From assembly GCA_965227835.1 (NCBI GenBank), contig OZ245768.1:1350001-1382000 (forward strand): DNA of 32,000 nt, written 5' to 3'. Positions 4,695-32,000 of the stretch are shown here, piece by piece. Numbering within the stretch: the stretch's first letter is position 1; each line of letters begins with the position of its first letter. The position numbers were made by a program, and so were the translations under genes. Source of the DNA: Candidatus Saccharimonadota bacterium (GTDB taxonomy: Bacteria; Patescibacteriota; Gracilibacteria; BD1-5; UBA6164). Under the pieces are notes generated by a model. The model saw only the letters and a program-made list of their open reading frames with translations. It ran no database searches and was not told the DNA's origin.

Positions 4695-6644
4695 ATGCAT
4701 ACAAAATACCAAGCAAATGCAAGAAAAATAAAAATAGCTATATTTTTCATCCTGTGCACTTTATTATTTAGCTCCTGTGTTAAAACCAAAGAGGAAGTTG
4801 AACAAATCTCAGAAAAACAAGATTTTTTTATACAAACAAAAAAGCTATCTTCTTTTACATGAAGCTATGAAATCAAAAAAACAGGAAAAATAAAACCAAG
4901 CCAAGAAATAATACTAACATCAAAAGTTTCTGGTAGAGTGTGAAGTATAAATTCAGACTTTTGACAAAATGTATATGCAGGACAAAATCTAGTTAATTTA
5001 GTAGATAATGTTTCAAATTATGGATTAAACTTAGAAAAATCTTCACTATCTCTTGAAAGCTCCAAACTTAGCTATGACCAAAATAAAATAAGTTTGGACA
5101 AACAAGTAGAAGATGCTGAGATAGCCTTAGCTAGAGAAAAAAAAGATCATGAAATATTAGAAAAGAAAATAAAAGAAGATATAGAACTAGCAAAAATAAA
5201 TTTAGATAATTCTCTTTCTTGAAATAATGATTCAGTATGATTCACATCAAAAGCTCAATTAGACTATGAAAATTTATTAAAAAGCAACCAAGAACAAATA
5301 AAGACTTTTGAATCTACCTCAAAAAATGATTATCTATCACTAAAAAACTCATTTGTAGATGTAATAGATTTTTCTGATGGAATACTTTGAATTACAAATT
5401 TAAATAAAAGTAGAAACGATAGCTTCGAAGATTATCTATGAGTAAAAGATTCTATTTTCTTAAAAGAAACAGAAAGAGAATTTATAGATCTTATGAAATT
5501 CAAAGAAGATACCTTTGATTCTATATGAAAAGATGATTTAAACATAGAAAATCTAGACTCTTTTTTCAATGTGGCAATTCAATCCTACACCAAAATAATA
5601 GCCTTTCTAGACTCTTTAGAGAAAGTGCTTGATAACTCTGTTGAAAATATTTACTTTACTAGAACAGAAATAGATAGCTATAAAACACAAACAAATTCCT
5701 ATCAAACAGAACTTCAATCAAAATACAATTCTCTTTTGTCTTTTAGATCAAGTGTTAGAGAATTTTTAAATACATATAGTGATGAAGAAGAAATACTTAG
5801 AAAAAGTTTAGAAATATCAGGAGATACTGCTAGAGTTAGTTACAATAAAACTGTGCTTGATTGACAAAAATCTATAAACGATAGTCTTTTATCATTAAAA
5901 ACTGCTGAACTTAATTTACAAAATGCAGAAAAAAATAGGGAAGTTGTCTTAAAACAACTTCAAAACTCTATAGACCTAGCAGAAAATTCTAGATCACTAT
6001 CATATAAAGAATATCAAAAACTATCAATATCTTCTCCTATAAATTGAGTTGTATCCGATATATTAGTTGATATTTGAGAAGATGTTACTCTTTGAACCCC
6101 ATTAATTAAGTTATCATCTCTTTGAACTAATGAGCTCGAAGTTTGATTTAGTTTCTCTGAAGTTGATTATATAAAACCATGAGATATAGTAAAAGTTGAT
6201 TATTTATGAAGTACTTTGAGCTGAACTATTAACTCTATTTCAAAAATAGCTGATGAAAATCTAAATTATAAATCAAGAATTAGTGTAGATTCTCCTGTAA
6301 GTATTTCTTGAAATATAGTTGATGTTTTTGTCCCAATAACCCTATCTAAAAGGTTGATAGAGCTAAAAGATGTCAAAGTTAAATCAAATTGACTTTGAGA
6401 AGTAAATGTACTTTGAGCATATTCTTCTTCAGATAATGAAAAACAAAGCCTAAATGTAGAAAAAGTATTATTAGAACTTTGAACATTTTATTGAGAAAAG
6501 GTAGAAATACTATCTTGTATAGATTTAAATGATGAAATTTGTTCTGATTTAGAAATAGTAATAAGTGATTTATCTAGGTTTGATGAAACTAAATTTAGTC
6601 TAAAGATGAAAAACAGTCCATTGGATGATAATTTGGAAAACTAA
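4695..6644 (+). CDS. Efflux membrane-fusion/periplasmic-adaptor protein (HlyD family), probable lipoprotein; table 25
   Basis: No TAA/TAG over 649 codons when TGA is sense (checked by hand); track ORF 5571..5864 is an in-frame fragment. The N-terminus AIFFILCTLLFSSC is lipobox-like. Two lipoyl half-motifs (ILTSKVSGRVGSI...AGQNLVNL and ISSPINGVVSDILVDIGEDVTLGTPLIKL) flank a long coiled coil. Confidence 0.75.
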
Positions 6645-6668
6645 ATATTACATAATTAAAAATAAAAT

Positions 6669-7505
6669 ATGATTAAACCAAGTAGTCGTAAAGATCTTTA
6701 TTCATTGGATAGTATTGTGAAGGCCTTTGAATCAATAAAAGAAGAAAAAGGTATAGACAAACTTTTAAATAAAGTAAAAAATCAAATATTTTGAAGTGAA
6801 ATTAAAGGAGAAGACTTAGAAGACTTCAAATGTTTTGTTAGGAAGTTTTATTCTCTTTATTACTTAATGAAAGATAAATTTTTTCATATATATAGAAAAA
6901 ATACTTGAGAAAGATACTTTGAACACCTAAGATGAGTTGTGCATAATGTATTAGAATTTTCAAACCCAAATATAGACAAGATATTAATTGCTTTAGCTCA
7001 CGATAGTATAGAGGATACAGATATAGATTTTGATTTTTTGAAAATATCAATTTGAGCAAAAAATTCTTTAGCCGTACAAGCGATAAGTAAACCTTCCTTT
7101 AAAAATTACAAATTTGTAGATTGAGCCGAAAATACAGACAAAGAAGCTAAAAAGCTTAGAAATGATGAATACTTCAAACATTTGAAGTCTTTTGAAGCTA
7201 TGAAAACTCATATTAAAAGTTTAGCCTTAGAAAAATCAGTAGAATTGTCAGATGAAGAAATTATAGAAATAACCCAAAATACATTTGATGTAAAATTTGC
7301 TGATAGAATACATAATCTATCTACACAATGGAATTCTAATGACTTGTATAATGTAAAAAGAAAGGTAGAAGAAACAAGAGAATTCTTTTTAGATATAGCA
7401 AAAGAGCTAAATAGTGATGTTTATGATAAACTTCAATCTCTTATTTTAGAACTTGAAATAAGAGTCCTTACAACTCAGAAAATGGCAGAAACATTATCTG
7501 CATAA
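6669..7505 (+). CDS. HD-domain protein, RelA/SpoT-type (p)ppGpp hydrolase-like; table 25
   Basis: The code-25 ORF includes track fragment 7182..7505. Motifs RYFEHLRGV, LAHDSIEDT and VKFADRIHNLST match the HD hydrolase domain signatures (HD..EDT; KLADRLHN). There is no synthetase domain (278 aa). Confidence 0.6.
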
Positions 7506-7571
7506 GTTTATGAAAATATTTCTAAAAGCTACATTTATTTAAAAAATCTTTACTTTTATACACATAACAAG

Positions 7572-7600
7572 TTTACACTTCTAACCATAATCTATAAAAT
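7572..7600 (+). promoter_or_regulatory. Candidate sigma70-like promoter for the RND gene (TTTACA-N17-TAAAAT)
   Basis: The hexamers were read directly. The -10 ends about 10 nt before ATG 7610, which implies a very short leader. AT-rich background makes chance matches likely. Confidence 0.3.
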
Positions 7601-7609
7601 ATAATAAAT

Positions 7610-10600
7610 ATGATAAAACAATGATTCTTTTATTTCTGGCTTAAAAACATAAAAACAAGTTTTTTACTTATAGCTCTTATAGTCTCCTCTTGAATCTTTT
7701 CTATTATTTCTATACCAAAAGAATCAAGTCCAGAAATAAAATTTTGAATAATAAATATAAATGTATCCTATCCATGAGTTAACCCTGTTGATATAGATAA
7801 TTTAATTACCGATGAAATAGAAAAGGAGATAGAAAACCTAGAAGGGATCAAAAATATAACATCAACTTCAAGTATTTGAAGTTCATCAATTACGGTGGAA
7901 CTAGATACTTGAGTTAATACTAGAAATTTATTAACAGACATAAAAGATAAAGTTGATAGTATCAATTTTCCTGAAGAAGCTGAGGACCCTATTGTAAGTG
8001 ATGTCAGCTCCAATAGCACATTACTTTATGAAGCCTTAATATATTGAGATGCTGATGCATTTGATGATTTTTCTTTGATGCAAAAAGCTAAATCTTTAGT
8101 TACAAAACTTGATGATACATCATGAATTTCAAGTATAGATATATGATGATTAGATGATACTTTGTGATCTACATCTTGATGATGAAGTAGTGATTATGAT
8201 ATAAAGGTGCTTCTTTCAAAATCAAAAGTAGAACTTTTGTGATTGTCTATAACAGATATATCAAACAAAATAAAATGATACAACAAAGATTTCCCTATAT
8301 GAAACTATAGAGTTTGAGATCTAAGTTATGATTTCAGGTTTGAATGAGAATTATCTTCATTAAATGATTTAAAAAATGTAGTAATCTCTGATAATGGAAC
8401 ATCAAAGATAAAATTATCAGATATAGCAGAATTCAAGTTGGAATATGATATAAACACCATAAAAAGGCTATGATTTTATTGAGTTTCATGACAAAATTAT
8501 ATTTCCTTAGTATTCAATAAAGCAGAGGATTCTAATGTATTTAAATCTTCTGGTTCATCCAAAAAAGTTTTAGAAAATATACTAAAAAATGATATAGAAT
8601 TTGAATGATTGAGTGTAAAATATTCGAAAGATATGGGAGAAACTATAATTGAAGATTATGAATCTCTCTGAAAAACAGCTCTTACAACTATAGTTTTAGT
8701 TTTCATCACTATACTCTTTTTTGTTGGTTTTAGAGAAGGTATAATAGCTTCTATTTTGGTTCCTTTGGCTTTTCTTATAACTTTTATAGTGCTTGACTAT
8801 ATGGGATCAACTATGAATTTTCTAACCAATTTTTCTCTTGTTCTAACTCTTTGAATCGCTATAGATACTGTTATAGTGATTGTGGAGTGAGCAAGTGAAA
8901 GAATGAAGTTAGGTTTTTCTAAAGAATCATCTATTATGCTTGCTATTAGAGATTTCAGATCACCTCTTATAAGCTGAACTTCTACTACTTTAGTAGCATT
9001 TCTTCCTATGATATTTCTACCATGAATAATTGGTAAATTTCTATCTTTTATCCCAATAACAGTTTTTATCACATTGATAGCAGCACTGTTTTTGTCTCTA
9101 AGTATCGCTTCAGCTTTATTTGTCACACTTCAAAAACCAAGTAAGACCTTTCATAGGGAAGAAAAAGTTGAGAAAAATATGAGAGAAGATGATTTAAAAA
9201 TACTTCAAAAAGATAGAGAATTTAAAATAGCTAAAGATGAACAATCTTTATCAATAAGGGAAAAAATATTACAAGGACTTTGAAAAATATATGAAAAAAC
9301 TCTAAACAAAGTATTTTCCAGACTTATTTATAAACTATCTTTTATTTTTATACCTATAATAGTTTTAGTATTAAGTCTTGTAACACTATCACCAAAAATA
9401 GGGTTTATACTTTTCCCTCAAACAGATGAATGAGTTATGAATATAGATATAAAATGAAAAACTGGTGTTTCAAAAGATTTTATGGAGCAATATATAGAAG
9501 ATATAGACAATATTCTTTCAAATATTCCAGAAATAAGAGTTTATTATACTACAGTTGAAGATAATACTATATCTGTTTATATAGATCTTTTTAAAAAAGC
9601 ACAAAGGGAAAAACAATGATTATTATCAGCCTATTCTTTAGAAACTAAGCTAGATGAACAATTTTCATATTTGAGATCTAATTGACTAGATCTTAGTGTA
9701 GCGGCTCAAAAAGGATGACCTCCTACAGGTTCAGCTGTATGAATAAAATTAGTTGCAGAAAATGCATCGGATTTTGATTCCTTAAAAAAGGTTTCTGAAG
9801 ATTTTGAGTTATTTTTAAAAGGTATAGCTTGAACAAAAAATGTGAATTCAAGTTCTAGTGATACACCATGACAATTTGTTTTTGAGTTTGATAAACAAAA
9901 ACTATCTAGTTTGTGATTAACACAAAGTGATATACTAAATGAGATATATTTTTATACCAATTGAATAAAATCATGATCTATAAAACAAGGTTCTCAAGAC
10001 AACGAAATAGTTGTATCTTTCAAAGAATTTGAAGATTTTTTAAACCCAGAAGATGTTTTAAATTTAGTGGTAAGCACTAGAGCTTGAAAAGTAAGACTTG
10101 GGGATTTTGTAGAATTTGATTTTAAAAAATCTGTTAGTAGTATATGAAGAATTGATTGAAAAGTAGTAATATCTATATGATCAGAGGTAAAGGAATGAGT
10201 TTTACCTACAGAAATTCAACCTAAACTTGAAGAATTTGCAGAAAGCTATAGCTATCCCCAAAACATATCTTTTATGAAATCTTGAGAAAGTGAAGAAAAC
10301 AAAGATTTGATAGTATCTACATTTAAATCTTTACTTATAGCAATGTTTTTGATATTCTCTATTTTAGTTTTTCAATTCAATAGCTTTATACAACCACTTA
10401 TAGTTTTATATTCAATAGTTCTGGCTCTTTTGGGTGTTAATATATGACTTTATGCAACTTGAAATCCTTATTCTATGCCTTTTGCAATTTGATTTATAGC
10501 CCTTACTTGAGTTGTTGTAAACGATGCAATCATATTGATAGATAGAATAAACAAGCAAATACAAAATAAGCTTAAAAATTCAAAAACCTCGGATATAAAT

Positions 10601-10840
10601 TATTTAGAACAAATAATAATTGCTTGAAAATCGAGATTACAACCTATAATAGTTACTACAGTTACAACTATTTTTGGTGTATTACCACTTGCTTTACAAG
10701 ATGAATTTTGGGCAGGTCTTGGATTCACTATAATATTTTGACTTTTTGTTTGAAGTTTTATGACACTTGTCGTTATTCCTATCTTGTATCAAATACTTGT
10801 TTTGGGTAGAAAAAAGAAAAAAAAGACTCATGTTTCTTAA
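7610..10840 (+). CDS. RND-superfamily efflux transporter (AcrB/AcrD/AcrF family); table 25
   Basis: I walked all 1076 codons: there is no TAA/TAG, and dozens of TGA. Track ORF 9074..9283 is an in-frame fragment. Hallmarks are the N-terminal TM followed by a large extracytoplasmic domain, LGIAIDTVIVIVEGASERM and LTGVVVNDAIILIDRIN (the conserved TM4/TM10-type motifs), and a two-fold repeat architecture. Confidence 0.9.
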
Positions 10841-10899
10841 AAAAAGGCTGAAAAGTATTTTTAAATCATTGGTAATTTTATTTCCTTAAAAACACTCTA

Positions 10900-11991
10900 A
10901 TGAAAATTACAATTATAATATTAATTTTAATCGCTTGATTTTGGTTTTTTTATGATATTGAAAAAAACAAATCTATAGAAGATGCTAAGAAAGAGATGTG
11001 ATTTGCAAAAGATAGCGACCAAAATTTAGAAAATCAACCTACTAGCAATGACCAAGAAGAAACAAAAGAAAATATTTCAAATAAATCAAAACCAAGCTAT
11101 AGTGTATCTAAACTTGATAATAGAAACTATATAGAAATAGATGATTTGTCTTCTAAAGTTGAGAATCTTACAGAGAGCATAAAAATTAGCTGAAAAATTC
11201 TTGATGAAAATGTGGAAAAAATTATTGTTAATTTTAAAAATACATCATCTAGCTATCCAAATGATAGATATATACTTAAAAATTTCAAAAAATCAGATAA
11301 AACATTTGAGTATAATGCAGAATCTAGACTTTATCACAATCTTGATTACGGAGAAAATATATATTTGATAGAAGCATATATTTGAGATGAGGTTTCAAGA
11401 GTTCAATTAACTATAAAAATACCAAAAGATTTTTGAGAAAATGAAGAAAAAGAAAACTATATACCTATAACAGACAAAATAACATATGATAAAAAAGTAA
11501 TTTGAAGTTGAGATGAGGTACTTTATTTAGGTATGCCTATTTCAAATACTTTTTGAAGACCTTTAAACTTATGAAACTGAGAAATAACATATTCAAATAT
11601 TTCTGGTCTTGTGATAAAAAAAGACAACTTTATAAAAAATGATATTAGAGATGACAATGTATGGAAAACAGATTCTAGTTGATATTTAAACAAAAACTTA
11701 GACTCTCCTTTTATATACTGGAACTCTTTTAGAAATATAGATTTAGATAATCCAAGCTATGGTTCTAGCTTTTATGTACTTAGAAAAAAAGATGATAAAT
11801 ATGTTTATGAAAAATACTATTTTGATTTTAGACACAATTTGAAATGAATTTTAGAGATTGAAAAATTTGACTCACTATGAGGTAGTGTATCTGTGGAAAT
11901 GAGTGAGTTAAATTGAGAACTTAGAAATAAAAACAAGGATTTTGAAATAGTAAAAATAACAGATTCTCTTTTTAGGGAGATAGTTAGGTAG
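10900..11991 (+). CDS. Hypothetical N-terminally membrane-anchored protein; table 25
   Basis: 363-codon ORF with TGA as sense, ending in TAG. It has an N-terminal TM (MKITIIILILIAGFWFF). No family recognised. Confidence 0.55.
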
Positions 11992-12053
11992 TTTATATCT
12001 TTCAATAATAATCTTTTGTTTTTTAAAGCTTTATTATTTTAAATTAAAAACTT

Positions 12054-12758
12054 ATGAGAGTACTACTTAAAATATCTTGAGAAGCATTAGCTTGAGATGA
12101 ACAGATATGAATAGATTATAATATGTTAAACAATATATGTGATACTATAGTAGAAATAGTTAAAAAAGGTGTTGAAATAGCTTTAGTTGTAGGAGCATGA
12201 AATTATGTAAGATGAGCAGATTTAGAAAAAATAGGTATAGATAGATGTAATGCCGATAATATGGGTATGCTTGCTGTCAATATGAATGCTATAGCTCTAG
12301 CAGATATTCTTGGTAAAAAAAATCTTGAAGTTAAGCAGGTAAGTTCATTTTCTATTGATTGAATAAGTGATAGATTTAATAAACCAAAAACAATAAAAAA
12401 CCTACAAAAATGATATGTTGTTGTATTTTGATGATGAACTTGAAATCCTTATTTTACAACCGATAGTGCTTGAGTTTTGAGAGCATTAGAGATAGAAGCT
12501 GATATGATGGTAAAAGCTACAAAAGTAAATTGAGTATATGATAAAGATCCAGAAAAACACAGTGATGCTAAACTTATAAAAAAAGCTAATTATGATGAGG
12601 TAATTACCAATGACCTAAGAGTTATGGATCCAACTGCAATAACTTTGGCTAAAGAAAATAATTTGGTTTTAAAAGTTGTTAGTATGTATAAAAAATGAGC
12701 TGTTTTAAAATCTATTTTTTGAGAAGATGAGGGAACAACTATTAGTAGAAAATCTTAA
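12054..12758 (+). CDS. pyrH: UMP kinase; table 25
   Basis: MRVLLKISGEAL..., [50 protein letters not shown]. Four of the invariant Gly in GGGTGNP are TGA (12429-12437 and 12441-12443). Confidence 0.92.
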
Positions 12759-12987
12759 AATTTATTCATTAAAAAGTAAAAAAATTAGTATTGATTTAGA
12801 TTTTTCTTGAGAGCAAAAAACAAAAGAAAATATTCAATGATTGTGAGAAAATGTATATGAAAGTGAAAATTGTGATTATATAATGTGATGTCATAAAATA
12901 GGTAATGTTGTATCTGGAGTATCTTGATTTGATAAACATACATTATGTCTTTTTAAATCAATTGACCCAAAACTTGAAGAGAACTAA
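12727..12987 (+). CDS. Small hypothetical ORF overlapping the pyrH 3' end by 32 nt; table 25
   Basis: 86 codons are open with TGA as sense. No recognisable family, so it may be spurious. Confidence 0.3.
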
Positions 12988-13038
12988 ATATTTTTTATAC
13001 TCTCTAAATGTATCTAACCAAGATTTTTAGCAAAATTT

Positions 13039-13066
13039 TTGACATAAGCCTAGTTTTTTATAGAAT
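13039..13066 (+). promoter_or_regulatory. Candidate promoter upstream of rpmH (TTGACA-N16-TAGAAT)
   Basis: Consensus -35 at 13039-13044 and a -10-like TAGAAT at 13061-13066, about 115 nt upstream of the rpmH ATG. Confidence 0.4.
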
Positions 13067-13182
13067 ACATCTACAAAAATTTTTTGAGTAAAAATTAGCA
13101 AAAAAGGATTATTTATTGTCTATATGTCAATTTTTCCACTCCTTTATTAAATAAAAGAATTAATTATTAAGTTAGCAAAACA

Positions 13183-13428
13183 ATGTTAGGAAAATTAAAA
13201 AAAAGAAAAAGACTAAGAGTTCATGGTTTTTTAAAAAGAAGCTCTAGTGTTTCTGGTAGAAAAATTTTAAAAAACAGAAGAAGAAAAGGTAGACACGAAC
13301 TTACAGTTTCTTATCCAAAAAGATATCAAGAAATTAACTGAAAACCAAGAATGCATATAATTGCTTGAGGTAAAGCTAAAAAAACACCTTTTGATGGTAA
13401 AGGTAATTATATTAAGAAAAAAAAATAG
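13183..13428 (+). CDS. rpmH: Ribosomal protein L34 with a C-terminal extension; table 25
   Basis: The core KRKRLRVHGFLKRSSSVSGRKILKNRRRKGRHELTVS matches L34. The frame continues through TGA at 13339-13341 and 13363-13365 to TAG 13426-13428, giving 81 aa against the usual ~45. Confidence 0.85.
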
Positions 13429-13437
13429 TATTTTTCT

Positions 13438-13806
13438 ATGATAAGCAAAAAATATAGATTAAAACAAAGAGAAGTTAGAAAGGTTTTAACATCAATAAAA
13501 CCTTTTTTTTCTTATGATTTTGTTTTGAAAACTAAAATAAATAAAAAAGATTTTAACAGATTTGCTATAGTTATATGATCTAAATCCGTTAAAAACAATG
13601 TTATAAGAAACTATTTTAGAAGATTTTTTTACAGATTTATTAAAAAAAGTTATCTATATATAGACTCCTTTAAATCTAAAAACAAATATGATTTAGTGTT
13701 TGTCTTGAAGAAACAAACTAAACTTGATAAATATGATAAAAAAACTATAGTTTCGTTTGAAAATAATTTAGTATTTTTAGAAAAGAAGCTCAGAAATAAT
13801 CTTTAA
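13438..13806 (+). CDS. rnpA: RNase P protein component; table 25
   Basis: Basic 122-aa protein directly after rpmH (KKYRLKQREVRKVL..., RFAIVIGSKSVKNNVIRNYFRRFF). The rpmH-rnpA-yidC synteny is conserved. Confidence 0.8.
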
Positions 13807-13817
13807 AAACAACACCT

Positions 13818-14993: not shown

Positions 14994-15016
14994 TCTAGTA
15001 AAAAAAACAATTTATA

Positions 15017-15045
15017 TTGACTTTTATCCTCAAAATATATAGACT
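15017..15045 (+). promoter_or_regulatory. Candidate promoter for the LPXTG gene (TTGACT-N17-TAGACT)
   Basis: The hexamers were read directly, 35 nt upstream of ATG 15080. Confidence 0.3.
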
Positions 15046-15079
15046 ACAACTTGTTTATTATAATTTATAACAATTAAAT

Positions 15080-15766: not shown

Positions 15767-15797
15767 GCTTGTAAATAATTATTTATAAATTAAAAAC

Positions 15798-15836: not shown

Positions 15837-15898
15837 CTTGTGTTACAATTTAGATGTTATTAAAAACGATAATATTTTAGCTTCTAACATAAACTTAT

Positions 15899-18496: not shown

Positions 18497-18532
18497 CTTA
18501 CTTATAAATTTATTATATAAGCAAATTAAAAA

Positions 18533-20671: not shown

Positions 20672-21010
20672 AGTTTGTAATTTTTTGTTTGGGTTTTAGC
20701 TGAAAAGTTAGAGTTCCTTTGAAATATATCTCCTTTTAATTTTTAGTTTTTTACAAAATCTTTTCAAAAAGATTTGATATAAGTTCTAAAAATACTATCA
20801 TCTCTGAATTATTTTTTCATATTTTTTAAATTGTTCTTTAAAATTTAAAGTAAGATTAAATATTGCGAGTTAAAAGTTTGTCATATTTTGCCTTGAAATA
20901 TAGATATTTTTTTATTGGTAGATTTTTGCCTCGTAATATTTTTCAACCAAATACTGATTTTTTGCGAGGGAAAATTAGTATAAATAAACCTAAATAAAGG
21001 AGGTTAAAAA

Positions 21011-23266
21011 ATGTTTAAACGAATTATTCTTACTTTGTTTATCATTTTACCATTATCATTTGGTATATCTTCTTGTTCTGTTGAAGAAGATGAGGAAGAC
21101 TTAATTAGTCTCAATGATGATAATGGAGACGACGGTTCTGGAGACGATGGCTCTGGGGACGACGGTTCTGGAGACGATGGCTCTGGGGACGACGGTTCTG
21201 GAGACGATGGCTCTGGAGACGATGGCTCTGGGGACGACGGTTCTGGAGACGATGGCTCTGGGGACGACGGTTCTGGAGACGATGGCTCTGGGGACGACGG
21301 TTCTGGAGACGACGGTTCTGGAGACGACACTAGTGATTCTCCAAAAACCGTTCCTACCATTGAAGTTACCGTTCATGAAAACTACATCAGTGATACAATA
21401 GTTAGTCCTAGCTATAGTCTTACACCAAGTCAGTATAATATTGTTAATCCTATTTTTAGTCCTTCTAATGAAAATTCTTCTGATGAAAGTGACTCTGATT
21501 GGGATAATCTATCTACTAACTATAACTTAGCTGTAGATGGATATAATGACCTAGGAGAAGCAATATATGGTGAAGCTGACTATACTGAGGAGTTACCCTT
21601 AGACTGGGATTCAGATAAAACATATGACTTACCTGGAAATAAGGTTTTGTACTCCGACGATGAAGGCAGAATAGGTACATTTGCTAATAAATGGTGGGCA
21701 TCAGGTTACGATGAGCCTTCTTTTTCTCCAAACTATGGTCCATGGGAGATCATAGCTAGAATTGATGAAGAAGGTAACACTCTATCTGTAAAAGATGTAG
21801 TTGAATACTGGGATGTTGAAATTCCTTACTCTGGTGGAGATATCGCTTGGCATAATATTGTAGGTTTAGATTATTGTTTTGAGGCTAAATACTGGACTCA
21901 AGGTAATGAACCTATTCTTACAGGAGGTGAAGGTCAACCTAATTCTTGGGAGAGCCCATGGCAATCAAGTGACCTTTGCAATAGTGATGAACCAGCTATC
22001 AGTAATGATGATACTGGGGGAGGTAAATCAGAAATAGAAACTCTTCCACCTATGGAAGATCCTGATGATGGTTTACCTGACAATACTCCAGTTGTTCCAC
22101 CTGTTACACCTGTTCCAGATGAAGAACCAGAGGAAGAACCAGTAGAACCTGAACCCGTAGAAGTAGCTGAAGAAACTGGATTACCAGAAGATGGTTATGA
22201 GTTTCTAAGGACAGTTACTTCGGCTCATTGGGATTATCTTTTTCCTTTGCGTTCTGGAAGGTATAATGAAGAAGGCTCAACTAGGAATCAGCCCCCAATA
22301 GCCCTAGAAGATGGTTCAACCGATGTCTTTTCCCTTGATAACTTTAAAAAAGCTGTTTTGGAGTACAATGCTTATGCTTTAGCTAATGGCTTTAAGCAGT
22401 TCCTAAATGAAGGAACTCTAAAACAACAAGGGCAAGAGTTTTTGGTTTTTTGGGCTAAATCTGCTAGAGAAACTTCAGGTTCTTGGACTGATGCTCCATA
22501 CCCATGGATTACCACCTATACAAATAATCTTTCAGAAACTACAAGTCTCTGGACAGGTGCTTTGTACTGGGTTGAAGAAGTGGGTTTTACCACAAATGAA
22601 GATGGAACTAGTGATGCTATAGGTTATGTCGATCATGGATCATCTTATACTCCAGTAGAGGGTCGTTCTTATTATGGTCGAGGAATAATTCAGCTTTCCT
22701 GGAACTATAACTATGGAGCATTTTCTGCTTGGTTGTATGATAATGGTCTTATGACAGATATAATAACTTCAAGGGATACTCTTCTTTATAGACCTGACTA
22801 TGTTGCCACCAATGGTGCTTTATCGATACTGTCAGGAATATGGTTTTGGATGACTCCTCAAGGAGCAAAACCATCTTCTCATGATGTTCTTTATGGTGAT
22901 GTTTATAATGTTTCCCAAACTACTCAGGAACAGGGTCTACCTCAAAGAAATGATGGAGACTCTATACCTGTGGAAGAAGGAGATACTGTAGACGAATCTG
23001 TGATGGCATATCGTATTGGTACTGTCATAAACATAGTCAATGGTGGACTTGAATGTAACAAAGCTGCAAGTTGGCATGGAGGACCACCGCAGCGAATCTC
23101 TTACTACAATGCTTATACCATGTATTTCAATGATCAAATAAATGGTTTAAATGCAACTAGAGTGAGTGAAGCGACAGATATCTGGAACGAAAAAGTTTCG
23201 GATTCTAGTCACGACAACATAAAAATGGCAACTTGCTGGAGCCAAAAATCTTATTATGGTTGGTAA
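21011..23266 (+). CDS. Lipoprotein glycoside hydrolase family 19 (chitinase/lysozyme-like) with an acidic GDDGS repeat linker and putative CBM5/12-like modules
   Basis: Standard-code ORF of 751 aa with no in-frame TGA and a TAA stop. AAGGAGG sits 7 nt upstream. Lipobox-like LSFGISS|C. The GH19 catalytic core shows SARETSGSW, YYGRGIIQLSWNYNYGAFS and SGIWFWMTPQ. Aromatic-rich segments (NKWWASGYDEP...GPWE; AKYWTQGNEP...SPWQ) are chitin-binding-like, and a Pro/Glu linker lies at ~22060-22180. Confidence 0.88.
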   Translation: MFKRIILTLFIILPLSFGISSCSVEEDEEDLISLNDDNGDDGSGDDGSGDDGSGDDGSGDDGSGDDGSGDDGSGDDGSGDDGSGDDGSGDDGSGDDGSGDDGSGDDTSDSPKTVPTIEVTVHENYISDTIVSPSYSLTPSQYNIVNPIFSPSNENSSDESDSDWDNLSTNYNLAVDGYNDLGEAIYGEADYTEELPLDWDSDKTYDLPGNKVLYSDDEGRIGTFANKWWASGYDEPSFSPNYGPWEIIARIDEEGNTLSVKDVVEYWDVEIPYSGGDIAWHNIVGLDYCFEAKYWTQGNEPILTGGEGQPNSWESPWQSSDLCNSDEPAISNDDTGGGKSEIETLPPMEDPDDGLPDNTPVVPPVTPVPDEEPEEEPVEPEPVEVAEETGLPEDGYEFLRTVTSAHWDYLFPLRSGRYNEEGSTRNQPPIALEDGSTDVFSLDNFKKAVLEYNAYALANGFKQFLNEGTLKQQGQEFLVFWAKSARETSGSWTDAPYPWITTYTNNLSETTSLWTGALYWVEEVGFTTNEDGTSDAIGYVDHGSSYTPVEGRSYYGRGIIQLSWNYNYGAFSAWLYDNGLMTDIITSRDTLLYRPDYVATNGALSILSGIWFWMTPQGAKPSSHDVLYGDVYNVSQTTQEQGLPQRNDGDSIPVEEGDTVDESVMAYRIGTVINIVNGGLECNKAASWHGGPPQRISYYNAYTMYFNDQINGLNATRVSEATDIWNEKVSDSSHDNIKMATCWSQKSYYGW
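21125..21334 (+). repeat. Tandem 15-bp coding repeat: 13 GDDGS units plus one degenerate GDDTS unit, with a 30-bp higher-order unit
   Basis: The units GGAGACGATGGCTCT and GGGGACGACGGTTCT alternate. Phase was verified against the CDS frame. Confidence 0.95.
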
Positions 23267-23294
23267 GTGAAAATTTTTGTGTAATTTATAAACC

Positions 23295-23329
23295 AAAGAG
23301 GCTATCTATCACTAGATAGCCTCTTTTTT
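23295..23329 (+). terminator. Strong rho-independent terminator after the GH19 gene
   Basis: 14-bp perfect stem AAAGAGGCTATCTA / TAGATAGCCTCTTT with a 4-nt loop and a T-run. Confidence 0.85.
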
Positions 23330-23381
23330 AATTTTGATTTATTTAGGAAATTATAGTTAATATATGGAATATTTGTCTTCA

Positions 23382-24797
23382 TTAATCATAAATTAAATTT
23401 AATTTTTTATTTAAGCTTTTGGCAGAATGTTTTATAGCAGCATTTCAATTAATTAAACTTCTATAAAGAGATAATACCTGAGCCGTAATAGTACTTGGAT
23501 ATAAAATACTCTCTCAATTTTTATTTACATCATTAGCGAAAAAAGGTTGAATATCGTTTTCTTGAAATAAATCCTTATCAGATTTTAAAATGGATTCATA
23601 TTCTGATAAATTCTTTACAACAGGGAATCATGGGATTTTTGACCATCATTTATCTACATAGTTACTAAACCTATTTCATAATAAAACTTCTGATTCTATA
23701 TTTTTTCACTCTTGTTTAGAAAAATAATCAAATACTATTTTTGAATATATGGTAGTTTTTCCTGATCATTGAGTATCAAAGAATGTGACTTTTGGCATAT
23801 TACTTTTAAAAACTCAAGTCCTTTTCATCTGCATATAATATTCTTTTGATTGCTTATAAAATTTTCTATGTTTTCATCATTTTTTTCAAGCTTCTAAAAT
23901 TTTAAAACTCTCTTTTTGTACTGATGAGATAAATAATTCAAATATCTTTTCATCGCTTTTTGATGAATATTCAGGAGATAATTTTTTATTTAAGCTATCA
24001 GGGGCCCTCATCCCTTCATGCCAATAATCAAATATTCTTAATTTTATATCTTCGTCATCTACTAAAAACTTATTTGTTACTCATTCTAATATATCTGCAA
24101 AAATTTTATTTTTAAGAGTTTCTTTTTTATACATAACTCTCAATCCTCAATGATAAATTAGTCAGCATCTTTTAGGTTGATTTGTAACCTGAGATATATA
24201 TGTATCTGCCTCAAATATTGGTCATGAATCTCTTGCGATGTAGAAAACAAAATTCTTTTTTTTATGTAGCTGATTTATAAATTGATAATAAGAATAAGCC
24301 AACTGGTTTAATCTTTTAGGATCTATTACAAGCAAATATGGAGGAGGTATACTATTGCTATTTATGATATTCTTGATATCTCATTTTACTTTTCAAGTAA
24401 TTTGTAGAGTTGGATGTTTAACTAATATGTCAATGAGTTTTTCTAGCTTTTCATGTTCTTGAGGTTGAGGTAGATATTTATCTTTAGGATCTGCGACAGG
24501 ATGATTATATAAATGGAAATTAATACTTTTTGCATACTCAATAAAGATCTTTAAAACTTCTCTGATTTCTTCTATATCAAATTCTCTAATTGTATTATCG
24601 CTATTTCTCGGGAATAAATTTAAAGGAATTCATATAAATAATTCTTCTAGATTTTTTATATCTATTGATTCAAGTAAAGAGAATTTACGAGAAAAAAACT
24701 CTTTTAAAGTGTATTTATATTTTTCAGAGAAAATTATGCTTTCATCATAAATTTTATTACATGTATCCATTTTTATACTATTAATTTTATCCCCCAT
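23382..24797 (-). CDS. Hypothetical 471-aa protein of unknown function; table 25
   Basis: The reverse strand was translated codon by codon. It is open from ATG (24797; alternative ATG 24770) to TAA (23384-23382), with about 20 in-frame TGA (TCA on the plus strand). Notable strings are FVFYIARDSGPIFEAD and VTFFDTQGSGKTTIYS. No family assigned with confidence. Confidence 0.6.
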
Positions 24798-25085: not shown

Positions 25086-25313
25086 ATGATAAAAAAGACT
25101 TTATTGAAATACAGTCTATTTTTGTTTTTAAATTTATTGTTTTTTTTATTACTTTTTTATATATTTGAAACAATTTTTAAAACAGGTAGTAAAGCTATAT
25201 TTTTCTTTTTAGTAATTAGTATATTTCCCCTTATTTTCTTTACCTATATATTAATTACGAAAAATTTAAAAGAACTAAATAAGCTATGAAAGAATCCTTT
25301 AAATGAGAAATAA
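25086..25313 (+). CDS. Small two-TM membrane protein in the atpI/atpZ position; table 25
   Basis: The track ORF 25086..25289 reads through one TGA to TAA 25311-25313. It is hydrophobic and lies immediately upstream of atpB. Confidence 0.45.
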
Positions 25314-25319: not shown

Positions 25320-26126
25320 ATGGCAACAGATTATACTAACCAAGAAAATATTATACATTCCTGACCTCATATTCCTACTATACAAGGAGAACAGATAGCC
25401 TATGGTATCTCAAATACAGTAGTAACTACATTTTTGTTTGCTATTATGGTTTTAATAATAGTTTTTTTTGCGAATAAAGTTCTTAACTCATCTAAAAAAT
25501 CTAAACTTAAAACTGGTATTTTAAGTTTTTTCAAATTTTTTGACTGATATTTGAGAGGTGTTTTTTGAGACAAAAAAATAGCAAGAATGTATTTTCCTTT
25601 GGTAGTTTGAATTTTTATAATAGTTTTTTTTGGTAATTTATTTGGTTTAGCTATAGACTGGTTTTGAACTTCTGTTTCTGAATCTATACTACACTATATA
25701 AGACCAATGCACAGTGATTTAAATACTACACTTGTCTTGGCACTTATAACTGTTGTATCTTTTTTGACCGTTTGAATAAAAACACACTGAACTAAAGGAG
25801 TTTTAAAATGATATTTTTTTAATTTTTCTTGAGAAAATATATGAGCTAAACTGGTAAATGTTTTTGTGTGATGGTTACATCTTATAGGTGTTCCTGCTAC
25901 TTTGGCATCATTATCTCTTAGGCTTTTTTGAAATATATTTGCTTGAATAGTTTTGATATCTGTTATTACATATTTATGAGCTTGGATGACTAGCTGATTT
26001 TTTGAAGTATGAAGATTTCTATCTATACCTTTTTGGTTTTTTGAATTCTTTGTCGCATTTGTGCAATCTGTTGTTTTTGCGGCACTAATTATTTCTTATA
26101 TAAACCAAGCTAAAGAAACTCACTAA
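25320..26126 (+). CDS. atpB: F0 ATP synthase subunit a; table 25
   Basis: Walked with no TAA/TAG. It carries the conserved LSLRLFGNIFAG motif with both Gly as TGA (25929-25931 and 25944-25946), and the C-terminal FVQSVVFAALIISY. Confidence 0.9.
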
Positions 26127-26197: not shown

Positions 26198-26422
26198 ATG
26201 GAATTAAAAGAGTTAGCTATGGCTCTGGCTATAGGTTTGGGAGCAATATGACCTGGTATAGGTATATGATTAATAGGTAAATGAGCTTTAGAAGCTCTTG
26301 GTAGAAATCCAGAAGCCTCTGGAAAAATAAATGCTCTTACTATACTTACTATAGCTTTTGCTGAAGCTGTAGCTATATATGCACTAGTTATAGCATTTAT
26401 TATAGGTTTTGTTGATTTATAA
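26198..26422 (+). CDS. atpE: F0 ATP synthase subunit c; table 25
   Basis: [30 protein letters not shown]...FAEAVAIYALVIAFI is the classic c-subunit hairpin, with the Gly-rich helix partly TGA-encoded. Confidence 0.9.
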
Positions 26423-26459: not shown

Positions 26460-26936
26460 ATGGATTTGAAGTTTGTAACCATTGAAACATTTATTATACA
26501 GTTAATTTTGCTTGTTATAATACTTTGGGTTTTAAATAAATTTTTGTTTAAACCTTATTTATCTTATCTTGATAAATGGGAAGAAAGACAAGAAAAATTA
26601 GAAAAAGACTATAAAAATATAGATAAGCTTGTAAAAGATGCTGAAAAAGAAAAAGAAGAAATATTAAAAGATGCTAGAAATAAATCAAACACAATAATCT
26701 CTGAAGCTGAAAATTTAGCTAAATCTAAAAAAGAATCTATTTTATTAAATGCTGAAAACGAGTCTAAGTCTATTATAGAATCAGCTAAAAAGGAAATAGA
26801 GAAAGAAAAATTATCTATGTTGAGCCAAGTTAAAACTTCTCTAACAGACTTAATTTTGAAATTTAACAGAAAACTTTTTGATAAACAAGAACTAAATAGA
26901 GATTTTATAGAACAGCAAATATCTCATATAAAATAA
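26460..26936 (+). CDS. atpF: F0 ATP synthase subunit b
   Basis: Track ORF with an N-terminal TM, a long charged helix and the expected operon position. This gene happens to contain no TGA. Confidence 0.8.
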   Translation: MDLKFVTIETFIIQLILLVIILWVLNKFLFKPYLSYLDKWEERQEKLEKDYKNIDKLVKDAEKEKEEILKDARNKSNTIISEAENLAKSKKESILLNAENESKSIIESAKKEIEKEKLSMLSQVKTSLTDLILKFNRKLFDKQELNRDFIEQQISHIK

Positions 26937-26941: not shown

Positions 26942-27301
26942 ATGGAAACTAAACTAGAAGGCAGCTTATCTAAACTAAATATCTGACAATTAAAAGAGAT
27001 ACTTAAATCTCTAAGATTATACAAAGATTTATTAGCAAAGTTATGAAATAGAGGTAGAGATTTATTTTTTAGTAAAATCTTTGAAAAAAATATTTATAAA
27101 GTTGAATATTTTGAATCTGTATGAGAAAAAGAAGCTTTAATTGAGGCTTTGAAAGCTTATAATAAAATATTTTGAATATCTCCTTCAAAAGAGGATATTA
27201 TCCTAAAACCAAAAAATTCTTTAGAAGGTTGAATAAGGATACACAAAGATGATTGTATGGCTGATTTGAGTTTTAAAAAATTAGAGAAATTTATTAGATA
27301 G
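26942..27301 (+). CDS. atpH: F1 ATP synthase subunit delta (OSCP), unusually short (119 aa); table 25
   Basis: It sits between atpF and atpA. The C-terminal ...LEGGIRIHKDDCMADLSFKKLEKF resembles the delta C-terminus (GG..i..gd...D.S....L). It is about 60 aa shorter than typical delta subunits. Confidence 0.55.
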
Positions 27302-27606
27302 TAAGCACCTAAAAAGCTGAAAATATCTTTATAAAGTTAAGGGGAAATTAAAGAAACACTTGAAAAAATTTGTTTAAAAGAAAAATAATCCTATTTCAAC
27401 AAATGGCTTTAGCCATTTGCCAAAGCCCATTTTAAACTAGTTTGGAATTAATAGAAATAGTCTTGTTTGAGTAAATAAAATATGATTATAGTCTTTAATG
27501 AAATCCCGAAAAATCAACATCTATGAAGAAATAATCTTTATTTTTATCCAATGAAGTAATTTACTCAGAAATTCCTTAATAATTAATTTAATAACAACAT
27601 TTTCTT

Positions 27607-29112
27607 ATGCCCCATGATATACTAAATTCTATTATAAATGATATAGAACAAAAAATTGACTCTGTAGACCTAAATCCAGAAATAGAGAACTCTTGAGAAG
27701 TATTTTATCTTTGAGATGGTATAGCTAAAGTAACTGGACTTAGAAAAGTTGCCTACAACGAGGTTGTAGAATTTGAATCTTGAGCTAAAGGAATAGCACT
27801 TAATTTAGATGAACATTTTGTATGAGTGGTTGTTTTAGAATGATTTGATACTATAAAAGAATGAGATAGTGTTAAATCAAGCTCTAAGACACTTAGTGTA
27901 CCTGTTTGAAAAGAACTTTTAGGTAGAGTTGTAAATGCTCTTTGAGAATCTATTGACTGACTTGGTGAAATAAAAAGTAAAGAATTTTATCCAGTTGAAA
28001 GAGTTGCTGAATGAGTTATGGCAAGAAAATCTGTGCATGAACCTCTTGAAACTTGAATAAAAGCTATTGATGCTCTTGTTCCCGTGTGAAGATGACAAAG
28101 AGAGTTGATAATATGAGATAGGCAAACAGGTAAAACTCAAGTCGCTATAGATGCTATATTGAATCAAAAATGACAAGGGGTTATGTGTATCTATGTAGCT
28201 ATTGGTCAGAAAGAGTGAAAAATTGCTAGAGTAGTTGAAGAACTTAAAAAATCTTGAGCTATGGATTATACAATAGTTGTTTCAGCCTCTGCAAGCGAAC
28301 CTGCATCTATGCAATATTTATCTGCTTATTCTGGGTGTGCTATGGCTGAATATTTTATGTACAATGGAGGACATAGTTTAATCATATATGATGATTTATC
28401 AAAACAAGCAAATGCTTATAGAGAAATGTCTTTACTTTTGAGAAGACCCCCATGAAGAGAGGCTTATCCTTGAGATGTGTTTTATCTTCATTCTAGGCTT
28501 CTTGAAAGATCAGCTAAACTGAAAGATGAAATGGGAGCGTGATCTATGACTGCTCTACCTATTATAGAAACTCAAGCTTGAGATGTATCTGCCTATATTC
28601 CTACAAATGTTATATCTATTACTGATTGACAGATATTTTTAGATTCAAACTTGTTTAACTCTGGTCAAAGACCGGCCATAGATGTTTGATTATCTGTTTC
28701 AAGGGTTTGATGATCAGCTCAAATTAAAGCCATGAAAAAAGTCTCTTGAACCTTGAAACTAGATTTAGCCCAGTTTAGAGAGCTTGCAGCTTTTTCCCAG
28801 TTTGCATCAGATCTAGACGAATCTACAAAATCTCAACTTGATAGATGAGAAAGGATGATGGCTTTGCTAAAACAATCAATATATTCACCAATTACCGTAG
28901 CAAAACAAGTTTGTAGTATTTATGCATGAAGTAAAGGTTTTCTTGATAGGTTAGAAGTGTCTAGTGTAGCTAAATTTGAGCAAGATTTGAACTCCAAACT
29001 AGATGAAGAAAAAACTATAATAGAAGCTATAGAAAAAAATAAAGTACTTGATGAAGAAAACGAGAAAAAGCTAGTAAAAATAATTGAAAAAATTGTTGAA
29101 CTTAATAAATAA
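27607..29112 (+). CDS. atpA: F1 ATP synthase subunit alpha; table 25
   Basis: [16 protein letters not shown], Walker A GDRQTGKT (first Gly is TGA 28114-28116), [33 protein letters not shown]. Track ORF 28261..28455 is an in-frame fragment. Confidence 0.95.
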
Positions 29113-29124: not shown

Positions 29125-30162
29125 ATGAAAAAAAAAGTATTAATGATTTTTTGCGGGGGAACAATTGCTATGACACCGGACTCTAAAACTGGTGCTTTGA
29201 AACCTGCTAAAACTTCTAATGAACTATTGGAGCTTATTCCTGCAGTGAAAGACCTTGTTGATTTAGATGTTATTGAATTATTTAATACAGATTCAACAGA
29301 AATTAATTACACTCACTGGGTTAAATTAATTAACACAATTCATCAAAAATATAAGCAATATGAATCTTTCGTCATAACACATGGTACTGATACAATGGTT
29401 GATACTGGATGTGCTTTATCCCTTGCTTTTGGTAAAAATTTAACTAAATCAATTGTTATTACATGAAGTCAGAGTCACAGTGAGGCTATTTGAACTGATG
29501 CAAAATTTAATTTAGAAAATGTTTTTAGGGTTGCTATTTGTGATGTTCCTGAAGTTATGATAAGTTTTGGACACTATGTTTTAAGAGCAATTAGAGCACA
29601 AAAAAGACATGAAAGTGATTATAATGCTTTTCATTCTCCGAATTTTTTATATTTAGCAAATATAAGAGCTGAAATACAATGGACACCTGTTGCAAGAAAT
29701 AGTGTTGTACATATAAGTAAACTTAATATTAAAAATGACTTTGAGAATGAAATCTTAACTATCAAAGTAAATGCTGGGCTTAACGAAAAATTAGTTGAAA
29801 ATATCATTGGTCAGGGGTCAATTAAAGGAATAGTTTTTGAAAGTCTCGGTTCTGGAAACGTACCAAGTAAATATTTAAAATCAATTAGGCAAGCAACGAA
29901 AAAGAACATACCTTGTCTAATAGCATCACCATTTACCGGAGGTTCAACACATGCTAAGATTTATGAACTTTGATATGAGGCACTAAAGGCTTGAGCAATT
30001 GAGACATATGATATGACAGCAACAGCAATTTATATAAAGCTTATGTGGTGTTTAGCTCAAATAAATAAAAAAATAAAGGCTGGTGTTTTAAGTAGTGATG
30101 ATTTGATTCCAGTAATAAGAGAAATGTTTAATACAAATTATGTTGGAGAAGTTAGTATTTAA
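29125..30162 (+). CDS. Type I L-asparaginase (AnsA-like); table 25
   Basis: CGGTIAM, ITHGTDTM and VITGSQS motifs. Track ORFs 29125..29466 and 29557..29973 join in one frame through TGA codons. There are only 4 in-frame TGA. Confidence 0.85.
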
Positions 30163-30173
30163 CTTATATTTAA

Positions 30174-31082
30174 ATGCCAAATTCAAAAGAAATAAAAAGA
30201 AAAATATGAAGTATTAAAAATACTTGAAAGATCACAAAAGCTATGGAGCTTATTTCCACTGTAAAGATGAAAAAAGCTCAAGATTTAGCTGTATCTAAAA
30301 GAGAATTTGTTTTAGAAATTTTAAAGATATTTATTAGGATAGAACCATTTTTGTGAGATATACCTTTCTTTAAAAAAACACAAAATAAAAAAACTCTAGC
30401 TGTGATTATTACTTCAAATAAATGACTTTGTGGATGATATAATATAAACGTTTTTAAAGAGGTGAGTAAGTATTCTAAAAATAGCAATGAAATTATAGAA
30501 TATATAACTCTAGGAAAGAAAGCCTCAAATTTCGTACTTAGGACTTGAAATAAACTTTTAGCTGATTTTTCAGAAACTTTTACAGACAATTTAGAAACTA
30601 TTTTTTCTAGAAATATTTCTAGAATGATAAATGATGAGTTTGTGTCTTGAAAATACCAAAAAGTTGTTGTTTTTTATAACCATTTTATAAATACCATAAA
30701 CCAAAAACCTATAAAAAGAGAATTTTTACCTATTGAATCAGGAGAAATAAAAAAATATCTTTTTTCAGTTTTAGATTGACACTATGATTTGGAAAAAGAG
30801 CTTAGTAATATTAAAAGTTTATCTCCAGAAATAGAGCCTTGAATAGAAGATTTGGCTAGCCATATTATTCCTATGATACTTGATATGATGTTTTTTGATG
30901 TACTTTTAGATGCAAAAGCAAGTGAACATAGCTCTAGGATGATTGCAATGAAAAATGCCAAGGATAATGCCAGTAAAATAGCTTCAGATTTGACTTTGGT
31001 ATACAACAAAGCAAGACAAGCTTCTATTACCAGAGAAGTCTCTGAAATTACGGCTGGTGTAGAATCTATGAAAGATAGTTAG
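30174..31082 (+). CDS. atpG: F1 ATP synthase subunit gamma; table 25
   Basis: [42 protein letters not shown], and C-terminal [18 protein letters not shown]...[15 protein letters not shown]. Track ORF 30852..31082 is an in-frame fragment. Confidence 0.93.
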
Positions 31083-31268
31083 ACTAAATTTGAGTGTAGC
31101 TTATTTTGGTTATTTTGATATGTTGTTAAGGAAAAACCGAAAAATTATTATTTTATCAAAATTAAAGAATTTTTCAGCCTCTCTTTAAATTATATGAGAG
31201 TTACTATTTACAATATATAAAAATGTCTTAGTATAAGAGTGTAAATTTATAATTTAATCTTTTTAACT

Positions 31269-31586
31269 ATGAAACTACCAACTTTTATGAAAATTGTTTT
31301 AAATATTATATTTTATATAGTATATGTTTTATTTTTAACAATAATTGTAAGCTTTGCCTTACCTCTTTTATTTAACTTTTTTATTGATAGTAATACAGGT
31401 ATATCTAGTATTATACAGCTTATAATTGCAATTTTTGTTCTTTTTGTAACTACAATTTATAGAAGATATTTTTATATGTCTGTTGATTTTGGAAGTTTAG
31501 CATTTTGAAAAACAGATAAACAAGATAGTGAGTCTAATTTTATGCAAGAAGAAGAACTGGATATTTTAATACCCAAGGAAAAGTAA
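31269..31586 (+). CDS. Small hypothetical two-TM membrane protein inserted between atpG and atpD; table 25
   Basis: The track ORF 31269..31508 reads through one TGA to TAA 31584-31586. It has two hydrophobic helices and an acidic tail. Confidence 0.45.
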
Positions 31587-31760
31587 TATAATTTTAAAAT
31601 TTTGAAAATAAGTTAACATTTAACAACCAAGCTAATTTTAAAATTACTTATTGCTTTGTTATTTAAGGAAACCCTGAAAAATTCATTTAAAAGAAAAACA
31701 ATTCTTTTTTGTTCCTAATAAAATTAAAAAATTTTTAAAAATTAATATAAATTAAAAAAT

Positions 31761-32000
31761 ATGTACAAAGGTAAGATTACTAAAGTAGTTTGAGTTGTTA
31801 TTGATGTTAAATTTGAAGGAGACTATGTTCCTTCTGTTTATGAAGCATTGGAAGTTTCTTGAGCAGAAAATAAAGTAGTTTTAGAGGTTCAACAACAGCT
31901 ATGAGATTCTTGTGTTAGAACTATTGCAATGAATCCAGTTGATGGTCTTAAAAGAGATATGGAAGTAATATCAAAGCAGTGACCTATATCTGTTCCTGTT
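31761..32000 (+). CDS. atpD: F1 ATP synthase subunit beta (5' part, runs off the window); table 25
   Basis: MYKGKITKVVGVVIDVKFEG...YEALEV...VLEVQQQLGDSCVRTIAM matches the beta N-terminal barrel domain, with TGA at Gly positions. Confidence 0.9.

Follow-up and report, generated by a model that had tools for sequence, protein, structure and literature searches.

The DNA stretch described here, referred to as the window, comprises 32,000 nucleotides of contig OZ245768.1 (assembly GCA_965227835.1, positions 1,350,001 to 1,382,000 of the forward strand) with a GC content of 28.7%. It carries an ATP synthase operon, the pyrH gene, the rpmH, rnpA and yidC genes, and an AcrB-family pump, all of them containing in-frame TGA codons (called native genes below), together with two blocks, 99–4293 and 21011–23266, whose five genes lack any in-frame TGA (called islands 1 and 2). 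Between atpA and atpG lies a gene of the L-asparaginase family with an intermediate content of TGA. With a probability of about 0.96, the window is part of a chromosome of the Gracilibacteria (BD1-5) type, which is written in genetic code 25 and contains genes imported from standard-code bacteria, i.e., a mosaic. In such a chromosome, UGA would be read as glycine, UAA and UAG would be the sole stop codons, and UGG would still stand for tryptophan.

The native genes are unreadable under the standard code (translation table 11) and intact when TGA is taken as a sense codon. The coverage by stop-to-stop open reading frames (ORFs) of at least 100 amino acids is 34% with table 11 and 87% with TGA as sense for the whole window; for positions 4695–32000 the corresponding values are 24 and 87%, and between 10 and 18 kb every 2-kb bin has a table-11 coverage of zero. 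When 4695–32000 was shuffled 100 times and read with TGA as sense, the mean coverage was 5.9% (maximum 17%) and the longest ORF had 213 codons, vs. 1080 in the real sequence, where the longest frames span 1080, 766, 692, 650, 505, and 477 codons from stop to stop. A preliminary description of the window, made from its letters alone, had noted that standard-code ORFs are sparse and that long frames appear once TGA is read as sense; both points hold against table 11 and against the shuffles, and the frame lengths that it gave (1076, 764, 691, 649, 501, and 391 amino acids, each ending in TAA or TAG) have been reproduced. Taking TAG or TAA as sense does not bring back long genes, and each of these options has been rejected. 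In-frame TGA amounts to 309 of the 7,123 native codons (4.3%), is present in every sizeable native gene and, with 309 out of 468 (66%), is the majority glycine codon. The stops of all 21 complete native genes are TAA (15) or TAG (6), never TGA. The native genes are arranged as follows:

4695–20608, plus strand: native code-25 block, with Pfam matches on code-25 translations, TAA/TAG stops and 1 to 53 in-frame TGA per gene
4695–6644, plus strand: HlyD-like adaptor
6669–7505, plus strand: gene without assigned function
7610–10840, plus strand: AcrB-family pump, TGA aligned to Gly
10900–11991, plus strand: gene without assigned function
12054–12758, plus strand: pyrH, TGA aligned to Gly
13183–13428, plus strand: rpmH
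13438–13806, plus strand: rnpA
13818–14993, plus strand: yidC
15080–15766, plus strand: LPQTG-anchored protein
15899–18193, 18223–18441 and 18533–20608, plus strand: large proteins without assigned function
23382–24797, minus strand: native gene of 471 amino acids with 18 in-frame TGA and no Pfam match, the sole minus-strand gene of the window
25086–25313, plus strand: small membrane protein, native, code 25
25320–26126, plus strand: atpB (subunit a), PDB subunit-a matches
26198–26422, plus strand: atpE (subunit c), Pfam ATP-synt_C
26460–26936, plus strand: atpF (subunit b), Pfam ATP-synt_B
26942–27301, plus strand: protein of 119 amino acids at the delta position, no Pfam match
27607–29112, plus strand: atpA, 501 amino acids
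30174–31082, plus strand: atpG, Pfam ATP-synt, native, code 25
31269–31586, plus strand: small membrane protein, native, code 25
31761–32000, plus strand: start of atpD, which continues past the window edge, native, code 25

The amino acid that corresponds to TGA has been examined in five native proteins. Their TGA positions were masked as X, as a safeguard against circularity, and the proteins were aligned to solved structures (PDB) of standard-code organisms, with these results:

atpA, against the Bacillus F1 alpha subunit (2qe7): Gly in 24 of 28 TGA columns, Trp in 0 of 28
pyrH, against 2a1f: Gly in 11 of 15 TGA columns, the four others being Ala, Ser, and Lys
AcrB-family pump, X-masked PDB alignment: Gly in 18 of 44 TGA columns
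atpG, PDB gamma-chain alignments: Gly in 4 of 8 TGA columns
atpB (subunit a, poorly conserved), PDB subunit-a matches: Gly in 3 of 14 TGA columns

In the 109 pooled columns, Gly is found 60 times, Ser 8, Pro 7, Arg 6, Ala 5, and Trp once, and the BLOSUM62 score summed over these columns is +145.5 bits for Gly, +8 for Ser as the next best residue, and −128 for Trp. The glycines of AtpA that are written GGN are aligned to Gly in 12 of 14 cases, a rate similar to that of TGA, and therefore TGA behaves as an ordinary glycine codon. On the other hand, TGG matches the conserved tryptophans of the LYW motif of YidC and of the DW motif of subunit a (few columns), which excludes code 4, in which UGA is tryptophan. 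Amino acid composition leads in the same direction, because that of the native genes is normal solely under code 25 (6.6% Gly and 0.38% Trp, vs. 2.2% Gly and 4.7% Trp under code 4). Some of the best examples are found in individual motifs. In pyrH, positions 12429–12443 read TGA TGA TGA ACT TGA, so that four glycines of VF-GGG-T-G-NP are written as TGA, and this motif aligns to S/A/G-A-G-T-G of four solved uridylate kinases. The other sites mentioned in the preliminary description are likewise in-frame TGA codons: 28114–28116 in the Walker A motif of atpA (IIGDRQT), 25929 and 25944 in atpB (RLF-G-NIFA-G), 30423 and 30435 in atpG (K-G-LCG-G), and 15686 in LPQT-G. That description had also estimated that about two thirds of the AtpA glycines are encoded by TGA, and the count is 28 TGA plus 14 GGN (28/42, 67%). 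Its view that tryptophan is still written TGG, and that the code is thus not code 4, has been confirmed by the YidC and subunit-a alignments, as well as by the comparison of TGA columns with orthologs that it had proposed. Selenocysteine recoding was considered and rejected, since TGA, at 4.3% of native codons, is used in all sizeable native genes and shows no alignment to Cys; an Rfam search of the window detected neither a SECIS element nor any other Rfam family.

The lineage of the host has been placed with a single marker, by a similarity search with AtpA. Among the best 120 matches, all the named ones are from Candidatus Gracilibacteria (70–72% identity), including the closed genomes 28_42_T64 and HOT-871. 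This points to a host affiliated with Gracilibacteria/Absconditabacteria (GTDB class JAEDAM01), in accordance with the earlier remark that code 25 is a hallmark of SR1/Absconditabacteria and Gracilibacteria. As judged from this lineage, UGA would be decoded by a tRNA(UCA) with the glycine identity elements G1:C72, C2:G71, G3:C70, and U73, and release factor 2 would be absent, so that UGA would not act as a terminator and release factor 1 would serve UAA and UAG. The gene prfB is reportedly absent from all BD1-5 genomes, in which prfA is present (PMC6851277), and the reading of UGA as glycine in BD1-5 is cited in that paper as confirmed by proteomics (Hanke 2014, PMC4032931). Codetta has predicted UGA as glycine in 13 of 15 Gracilibacteria species, and the two exceptions keep release factor 2 and are devoid of tRNA-Gly(UCA) (PMC8629427). 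Across the genome collection, a pattern for a glycine-type acceptor, U73, and the anticodon UCA matched at least 120 loci. Among the 120 loci listed, 100 correspond to one conserved 79-nt tRNA, with the consensus GCGGGGGTAACATAAAAGAGTGAGTGTACTAAGGCTTCAACCCTTGGGTGTGCCAGTTCAAACCTGGTCCCCCGCTCCA, which occurs in Gracilibacteria, Peribacteria, Patescibacteria, or unlabelled genomes and often adjoins tRNA-Gly(GCC) and tRNA-Arg(GCG). Within the same set, this 79-nt tRNA is near-invariant in ~100 species (for example, L003, 4438–4516) and has an unusually long D-arm region; ARAGORN labels it as tRNA-SeC owing to its anticodon. UCA tRNAs with a glycine-type acceptor have been also detected in genomes labelled as Anaerolineaceae, Akkermansia, Archangium, Gemmatimonadales, Streptococcus sp. 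LQJ-218, and Thalassotalea (L002, L015, L034, L047, L084, and L085), and in these six genomes they could be suppressor tRNAs or the result of bin contamination.

The preliminary description had regarded the whole window as written in code 25. This stands for the native genes, whereas the blocks 99–4293 and 21011–23266 contain no in-frame TGA and fit both codes, and the mosaic character of the window was missed. The elements of the two islands are:

1–4433, plus strand: island 1, which may reach past the left window edge
99 or 108–1316, plus strand: TelA-like protein (Pfam)
1392–2438, plus strand: substrate-binding protein of an ABC transporter, NMT1/urea type (Pfam)
2507–3367, plus strand: permease of the ABC transporter (Pfam)
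3382–4293, plus strand: ATPase of the ABC transporter (Pfam)
4377–4423: GC-rich terminator hairpin of island 1
20990–23330, plus strand: island 2, one gene with native AT-rich DNA on either side
21011–23266, plus strand: lipoprotein of 751 amino acids with a GH19 chitinase/lysozyme-like domain (Pfam Glyco_hydro_19), preceded by an AAGGAGG ribosome-binding site
21124–21328: 13.7 tandem units of 15 nt that specify GDDGS, immediately downstream of the signal peptide of the GH19 lipoprotein
23295–23326: terminator hairpin of island 2

A binomial test against the native share gives very low probabilities for the lack of TGA among the glycine codons of the islands (0/90 in island 1, P ~6e-43; 0/81 in island 2, P ~1e-38). 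Of these 171 codons, 65 are GGA, which is one synonymous step from TGA. The GC content is 0.32–0.37 in island 1 and 0.40 in island 2, vs. ~0.27 in native genes. Native arginine codons are AGA (160), AGG (34), CGT (5), and CGC (1), with neither CGA nor CGG in 7,123 codons, whereas CGA occurs nine times in the islands, at positions where homologs have Arg. In this respect, Codetta predicts a reassignment of CGA and CGG to tryptophan in Absconditabacteria, and of CGG to tryptophan in some Gracilibacteria (PMC8629427). Translation initiation signals differ as well. In a scan of the 25 nt upstream of each start codon, a Shine-Dalgarno site (AGGAG or AAGGAGG, 6–10 nt 5′ of the start) was found in all five island genes and in none of the 23 others, that is, the native genes, whose leaders are A/T-rich, and the asparaginase gene (Fisher p = 1e-5). 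Such sites precede only 2 of 60 genes in three relatives, and the lineage seems to start translation without Shine-Dalgarno pairing. The islands as yet lack any drift toward host usage in TGA-encoded glycine, Shine-Dalgarno sites, CGA, or GC content. Tryptophan is written TGG in the islands too: in TGG columns, 86–87% of the homolog residues are W, and the island 2 gene has 24 such codons.

The closest homologs of the island proteins are from Proteobacteria, unlike the Gracilibacteria matches of the native AtpA. The GH19 protein has homologs in Vibrio, Roseateles, Bacterioplanoides, and similar genera (50–59% identity), none of them named Gracilibacteria. The closest named homologs of the substrate-binding protein are alphaproteobacterial (Magnetofaba, Rhodospirillaceae, and Kordiimonas, 62–65%), with Magnetofaba australis in first place (65%). 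The order of TelA, binding protein, permease, and ATPase in island 1 is also that of a Logan contig of 62% GC (L124), the closest such cassette, which suggests that this cassette has moved as a unit. Public proteins that match the substrate-binding protein (P0209) and the GH19 protein (P0121) at 100% share one public contig (1,489,121 bp) with the native atpA, and the window is thus a real part of a single public assembly. A TGA-free gene that ends in TAA or TAG reads alike in both codes, so that its import is possible; the islands are most likely horizontal imports from standard-code bacteria, as suggested by their composition, signals and homologs. After acquisition, both blocks would be functional in a code-25 cell because they have no in-frame TGA and their stops are TAA or TAG. 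Some additional features of these sequences and their homologs can be mentioned. The N-terminal part of the GH19 protein with the GDDGS repeat lies outside the homolog coverage, and the repeat is unrelated to a hypervariable gene with PTD repeats that has been described in a published BD1-5 genome. The closest GH19 homolog (59% identity; L123, 8001–10022) has a GC content at third codon positions (GC3) of 0.23, vs. ~0.48 for the other genes of its contig, and thus seems to be foreign to the 43%-GC genome that carries it; at ~3 kb downstream, separated from it by a single gene, there is a DDE transposase gene. In L124 (1–10534), the nine called genes all stop at TAA or TAG, which is unexpected at 62% GC, and TGA trinucleotides are common although never in frame.

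A third class of sequence is represented by the L-asparaginase-family gene within the ATP synthase operon:

29125–30162, plus strand: L-asparaginase-family gene between atpA and atpG (Pfam Asparaginase, Asparaginase_C)

In this gene, TGA is used for 4 of 21 glycines (19%; the binomial probability of four or fewer at the native share is 1.4e-5), and three of the four TGA codons align to Gly in PDB homologs. The gene is without a Shine-Dalgarno site, and its GC content (30%) is near the native value. Its best PDB match is the archaeal GatD, followed by L-asparaginase (4q0m), and the nearest representative in a search of 1.8 billion clusters, with a TGA-free fragment as the query, shows 45% identity. 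In three relatives (L121, L125, and L126), both the atp gene order and the 119-amino-acid protein at the delta position are conserved; atpA and atpG are adjacent in L125 and L126, and four other small ORFs lie between them in L121. The asparaginase gene thus appears to have entered the operon at an earlier time and to be assimilated in part. The share of TGA among glycine codons therefore defines three strata, with 0% in the islands, 19% in the asparaginase gene, and 66% in native genes, and together with Shine-Dalgarno sites and CGA use it gives a clear stratigraphy of the imported genes in this window.

Two alternative readings of the native genes have to be weighed against code 25. One is code 4, with UGA as tryptophan, which is found in Mycoplasmatales and in some insect endosymbionts. 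Coding density alone cannot tell codes 4 and 25 apart, and public data seem at first sight to favor the former: the atpA entry P0001 is identical to the window protein apart from W at 28 of 28 TGA positions, and 65 of the 116 closest 501-amino-acid entries contain 8–29 tryptophans, the correct copies having few or none. However, P0001 is the window atpA translated with table 4, and W in database entries arises from gene callers falling back on this table; code-25 lineages look systematically mistranslated in the public protein collection, in agreement with the confusion of tables 4 and 25 reported in the gTranslate preprint (10.64898/2026.05.24.727570). Code 4 is very improbable in view of the single Trp against 60 Gly in the TGA columns, the negative Trp score, the standard-code AtpA homologs without Trp at the TGA positions, and the 4.7% Trp and 2.2% Gly that it would imply. 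Even less credible is that the standard code applies and that the TGAs are real stops in a region that has decayed into pseudogenes or is full of errors. The short table-11 ORFs over most of the window would suit such decay, but 309 in-frame TGA are accompanied by zero in-frame TAA or TAG in frames of up to 1,080 codons, and the frequent frameshifts or TAA/TAG interruptions of decaying DNA are not seen in these genes. Moreover, TGA occupies invariant glycines of essential proteins (Walker A of atpA, GGGTGNP of pyrH), and relatives display the same TGA pattern.

Another alternative affects the islands only: instead of imports, these TGA-free blocks might be assembly chimeras, contaminant DNA, or native genes that avoid TGA through high expression. 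It is true that highly expressed native genes have less TGA (2/9 glycines in rpmH and 3/11 in atpE), and that the blocks are unmarked by a mobility gene or a flanking repeat. Nevertheless, expression bias yields a TGA share of ~25% and not 0/171, five independent properties shift jointly (TGA, GC, CGA, Shine-Dalgarno sites, and best-match taxonomy), and the block edges coincide with their own ribosome-binding sites and terminators. Island 2, in particular, is a single 2.3-kb gene in native AT-rich DNA, where a chimera needs two precise false joins. This alternative is accordingly considered unlikely. Several observations weigh against a code-25 chromosome with standard-code imports. Many TGA columns are occupied by residues other than Gly in poorly conserved proteins or regions (subunit a, periplasmic loops of the AcrB-family pump), although Trp is never enriched. 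The window contains no tRNA gene, and its source genome is absent from the 120 tRNA(UCA) matches listed (at least 120 loci); in these matches the glycine acceptor features were set by the search pattern, and the independent evidence is their taxonomic concentration and conservation. As for the imports, no integrase, transposase, tRNA target, or flanking direct repeats were found in the window, whose edge truncates island 1 on the left, and no empty site was found in a relative, the regions upstream of the atp operon being non-syntenic in L121, L125, and L126. The GC3 of the islands (0.21–0.25) is much lower than the values of 0.46–0.80 in the genomes with the closest homologs, which makes these genomes doubtful as donors. 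Finally, assembly chimerism of the islands is formally conceivable, although it would be unusual for one gene to be flanked by two exact false joins.

If the islands are imports, their composition allows a more speculative idea. Their GC3 is very low and yet 0 of 65 GGA codons have changed to TGA, so that the islands are maybe not merely recent. The TGA share of glycine codons, with its three strata, might act as a clock, or as the marker of a firewall, in recoded bacteria, and the 0% islands might have been kept code-neutral; this proposal is tentative and its correctness doubtful. If true, transfer of the islands to and from standard-code bacteria would be continuing, and these partners might be organisms that the episymbiont lives on or preys on; the GH19 gene, for a hydrolase of cell walls or chitin, would then be a mobile lytic gene that they have in common.

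Some other features of the native regions deserve a brief description. The product of 15080–15766 is a small, secreted protein with a C-terminal LPQTG followed by a hydrophobic tail, as in sortase-type anchors, and the G of its sorting motif is encoded by TGA; its match to Pfam Gram_pos_anchor is weak (E = 0.0016, below the cutoff). An 87-codon ORF with five TGA (12709–12987) shares 50 nt with the 3′ end of pyrH. It matches no protein family in a meaningful way and is perhaps not a gene; apart from it, the 400 bp between pyrH and rpmH carry no annotation. The spacer between the delta-position gene and atpA (27302–27606) measures 300 bp, compared with 20–175 bp in relatives, and contains a hairpin; none of its forward frames holds an ORF when read in code 25, and it is therefore non-coding.

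The code by itself is known biology, since the reading of UGA as glycine has been established for SR1 and Gracilibacteria since 2013–2014, and nothing in it is new. Table 25 is reportedly also credited to Campbell et al. and Rinke et al., both in 2013. The window shares with this table (the SR1 and Gracilibacteria code of NCBI) a UGA that is sense and aligned to Gly, the UAA and UAG stops, and UGG as Trp; the code is identical. Similarly, the closed BD1-5 genome has a GC content of 28.87%, close to the 28.7% of the window, and its AtpA (P0036) is 72% identical (Sieber et al., 2019; PMC6851277). With the table 4 systems (Mycoplasmatales, Hodgkinia, and Zinderia), the likeness extends to UGA as sense, low GC, a reduced genome, and an equal gain in coding density, and the difference lies in the TGA columns, here Gly in 60 of 109 and Trp in one. 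This distinction is of practical significance, as table 11 gives no usable annotation of the region and table 4 gives a wrong one, and mistranslation with table 4 distorts the results of homology searches, the predicted structures, and the compositional statistics of the lineage.

For the islands, the nearest precedent is that of the code-11-compatible phages of Gracilibacteria and Absconditabacteria, which also have no in-frame TGA and are readable in both cell types (PMC10746230). In contrast to these phages, the islands consist of chromosomal metabolic and cell-surface genes, with no phage or integrase genes adjoining them. The TGA-free islands indicate that the code change is a one-way valve, by which standard-code genes enter and function, whereas native genes, with 4% TGA codons, cannot leave. 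The islands also resemble classical genomic islands in their shifts of GC, codon usage, and best-match taxonomy and in their sharp gene boundaries, although the integrase, tRNA target, and direct repeats of such islands are not found here. On the other hand, they show a marker that classical islands do not have and that exists in recoded hosts only, namely the share of glycine encoded as TGA (0, 19, and 66% in the three strata), which, combined with Shine-Dalgarno sites and CGA use, offers a simple way to detect and date imports in recoded genomes.

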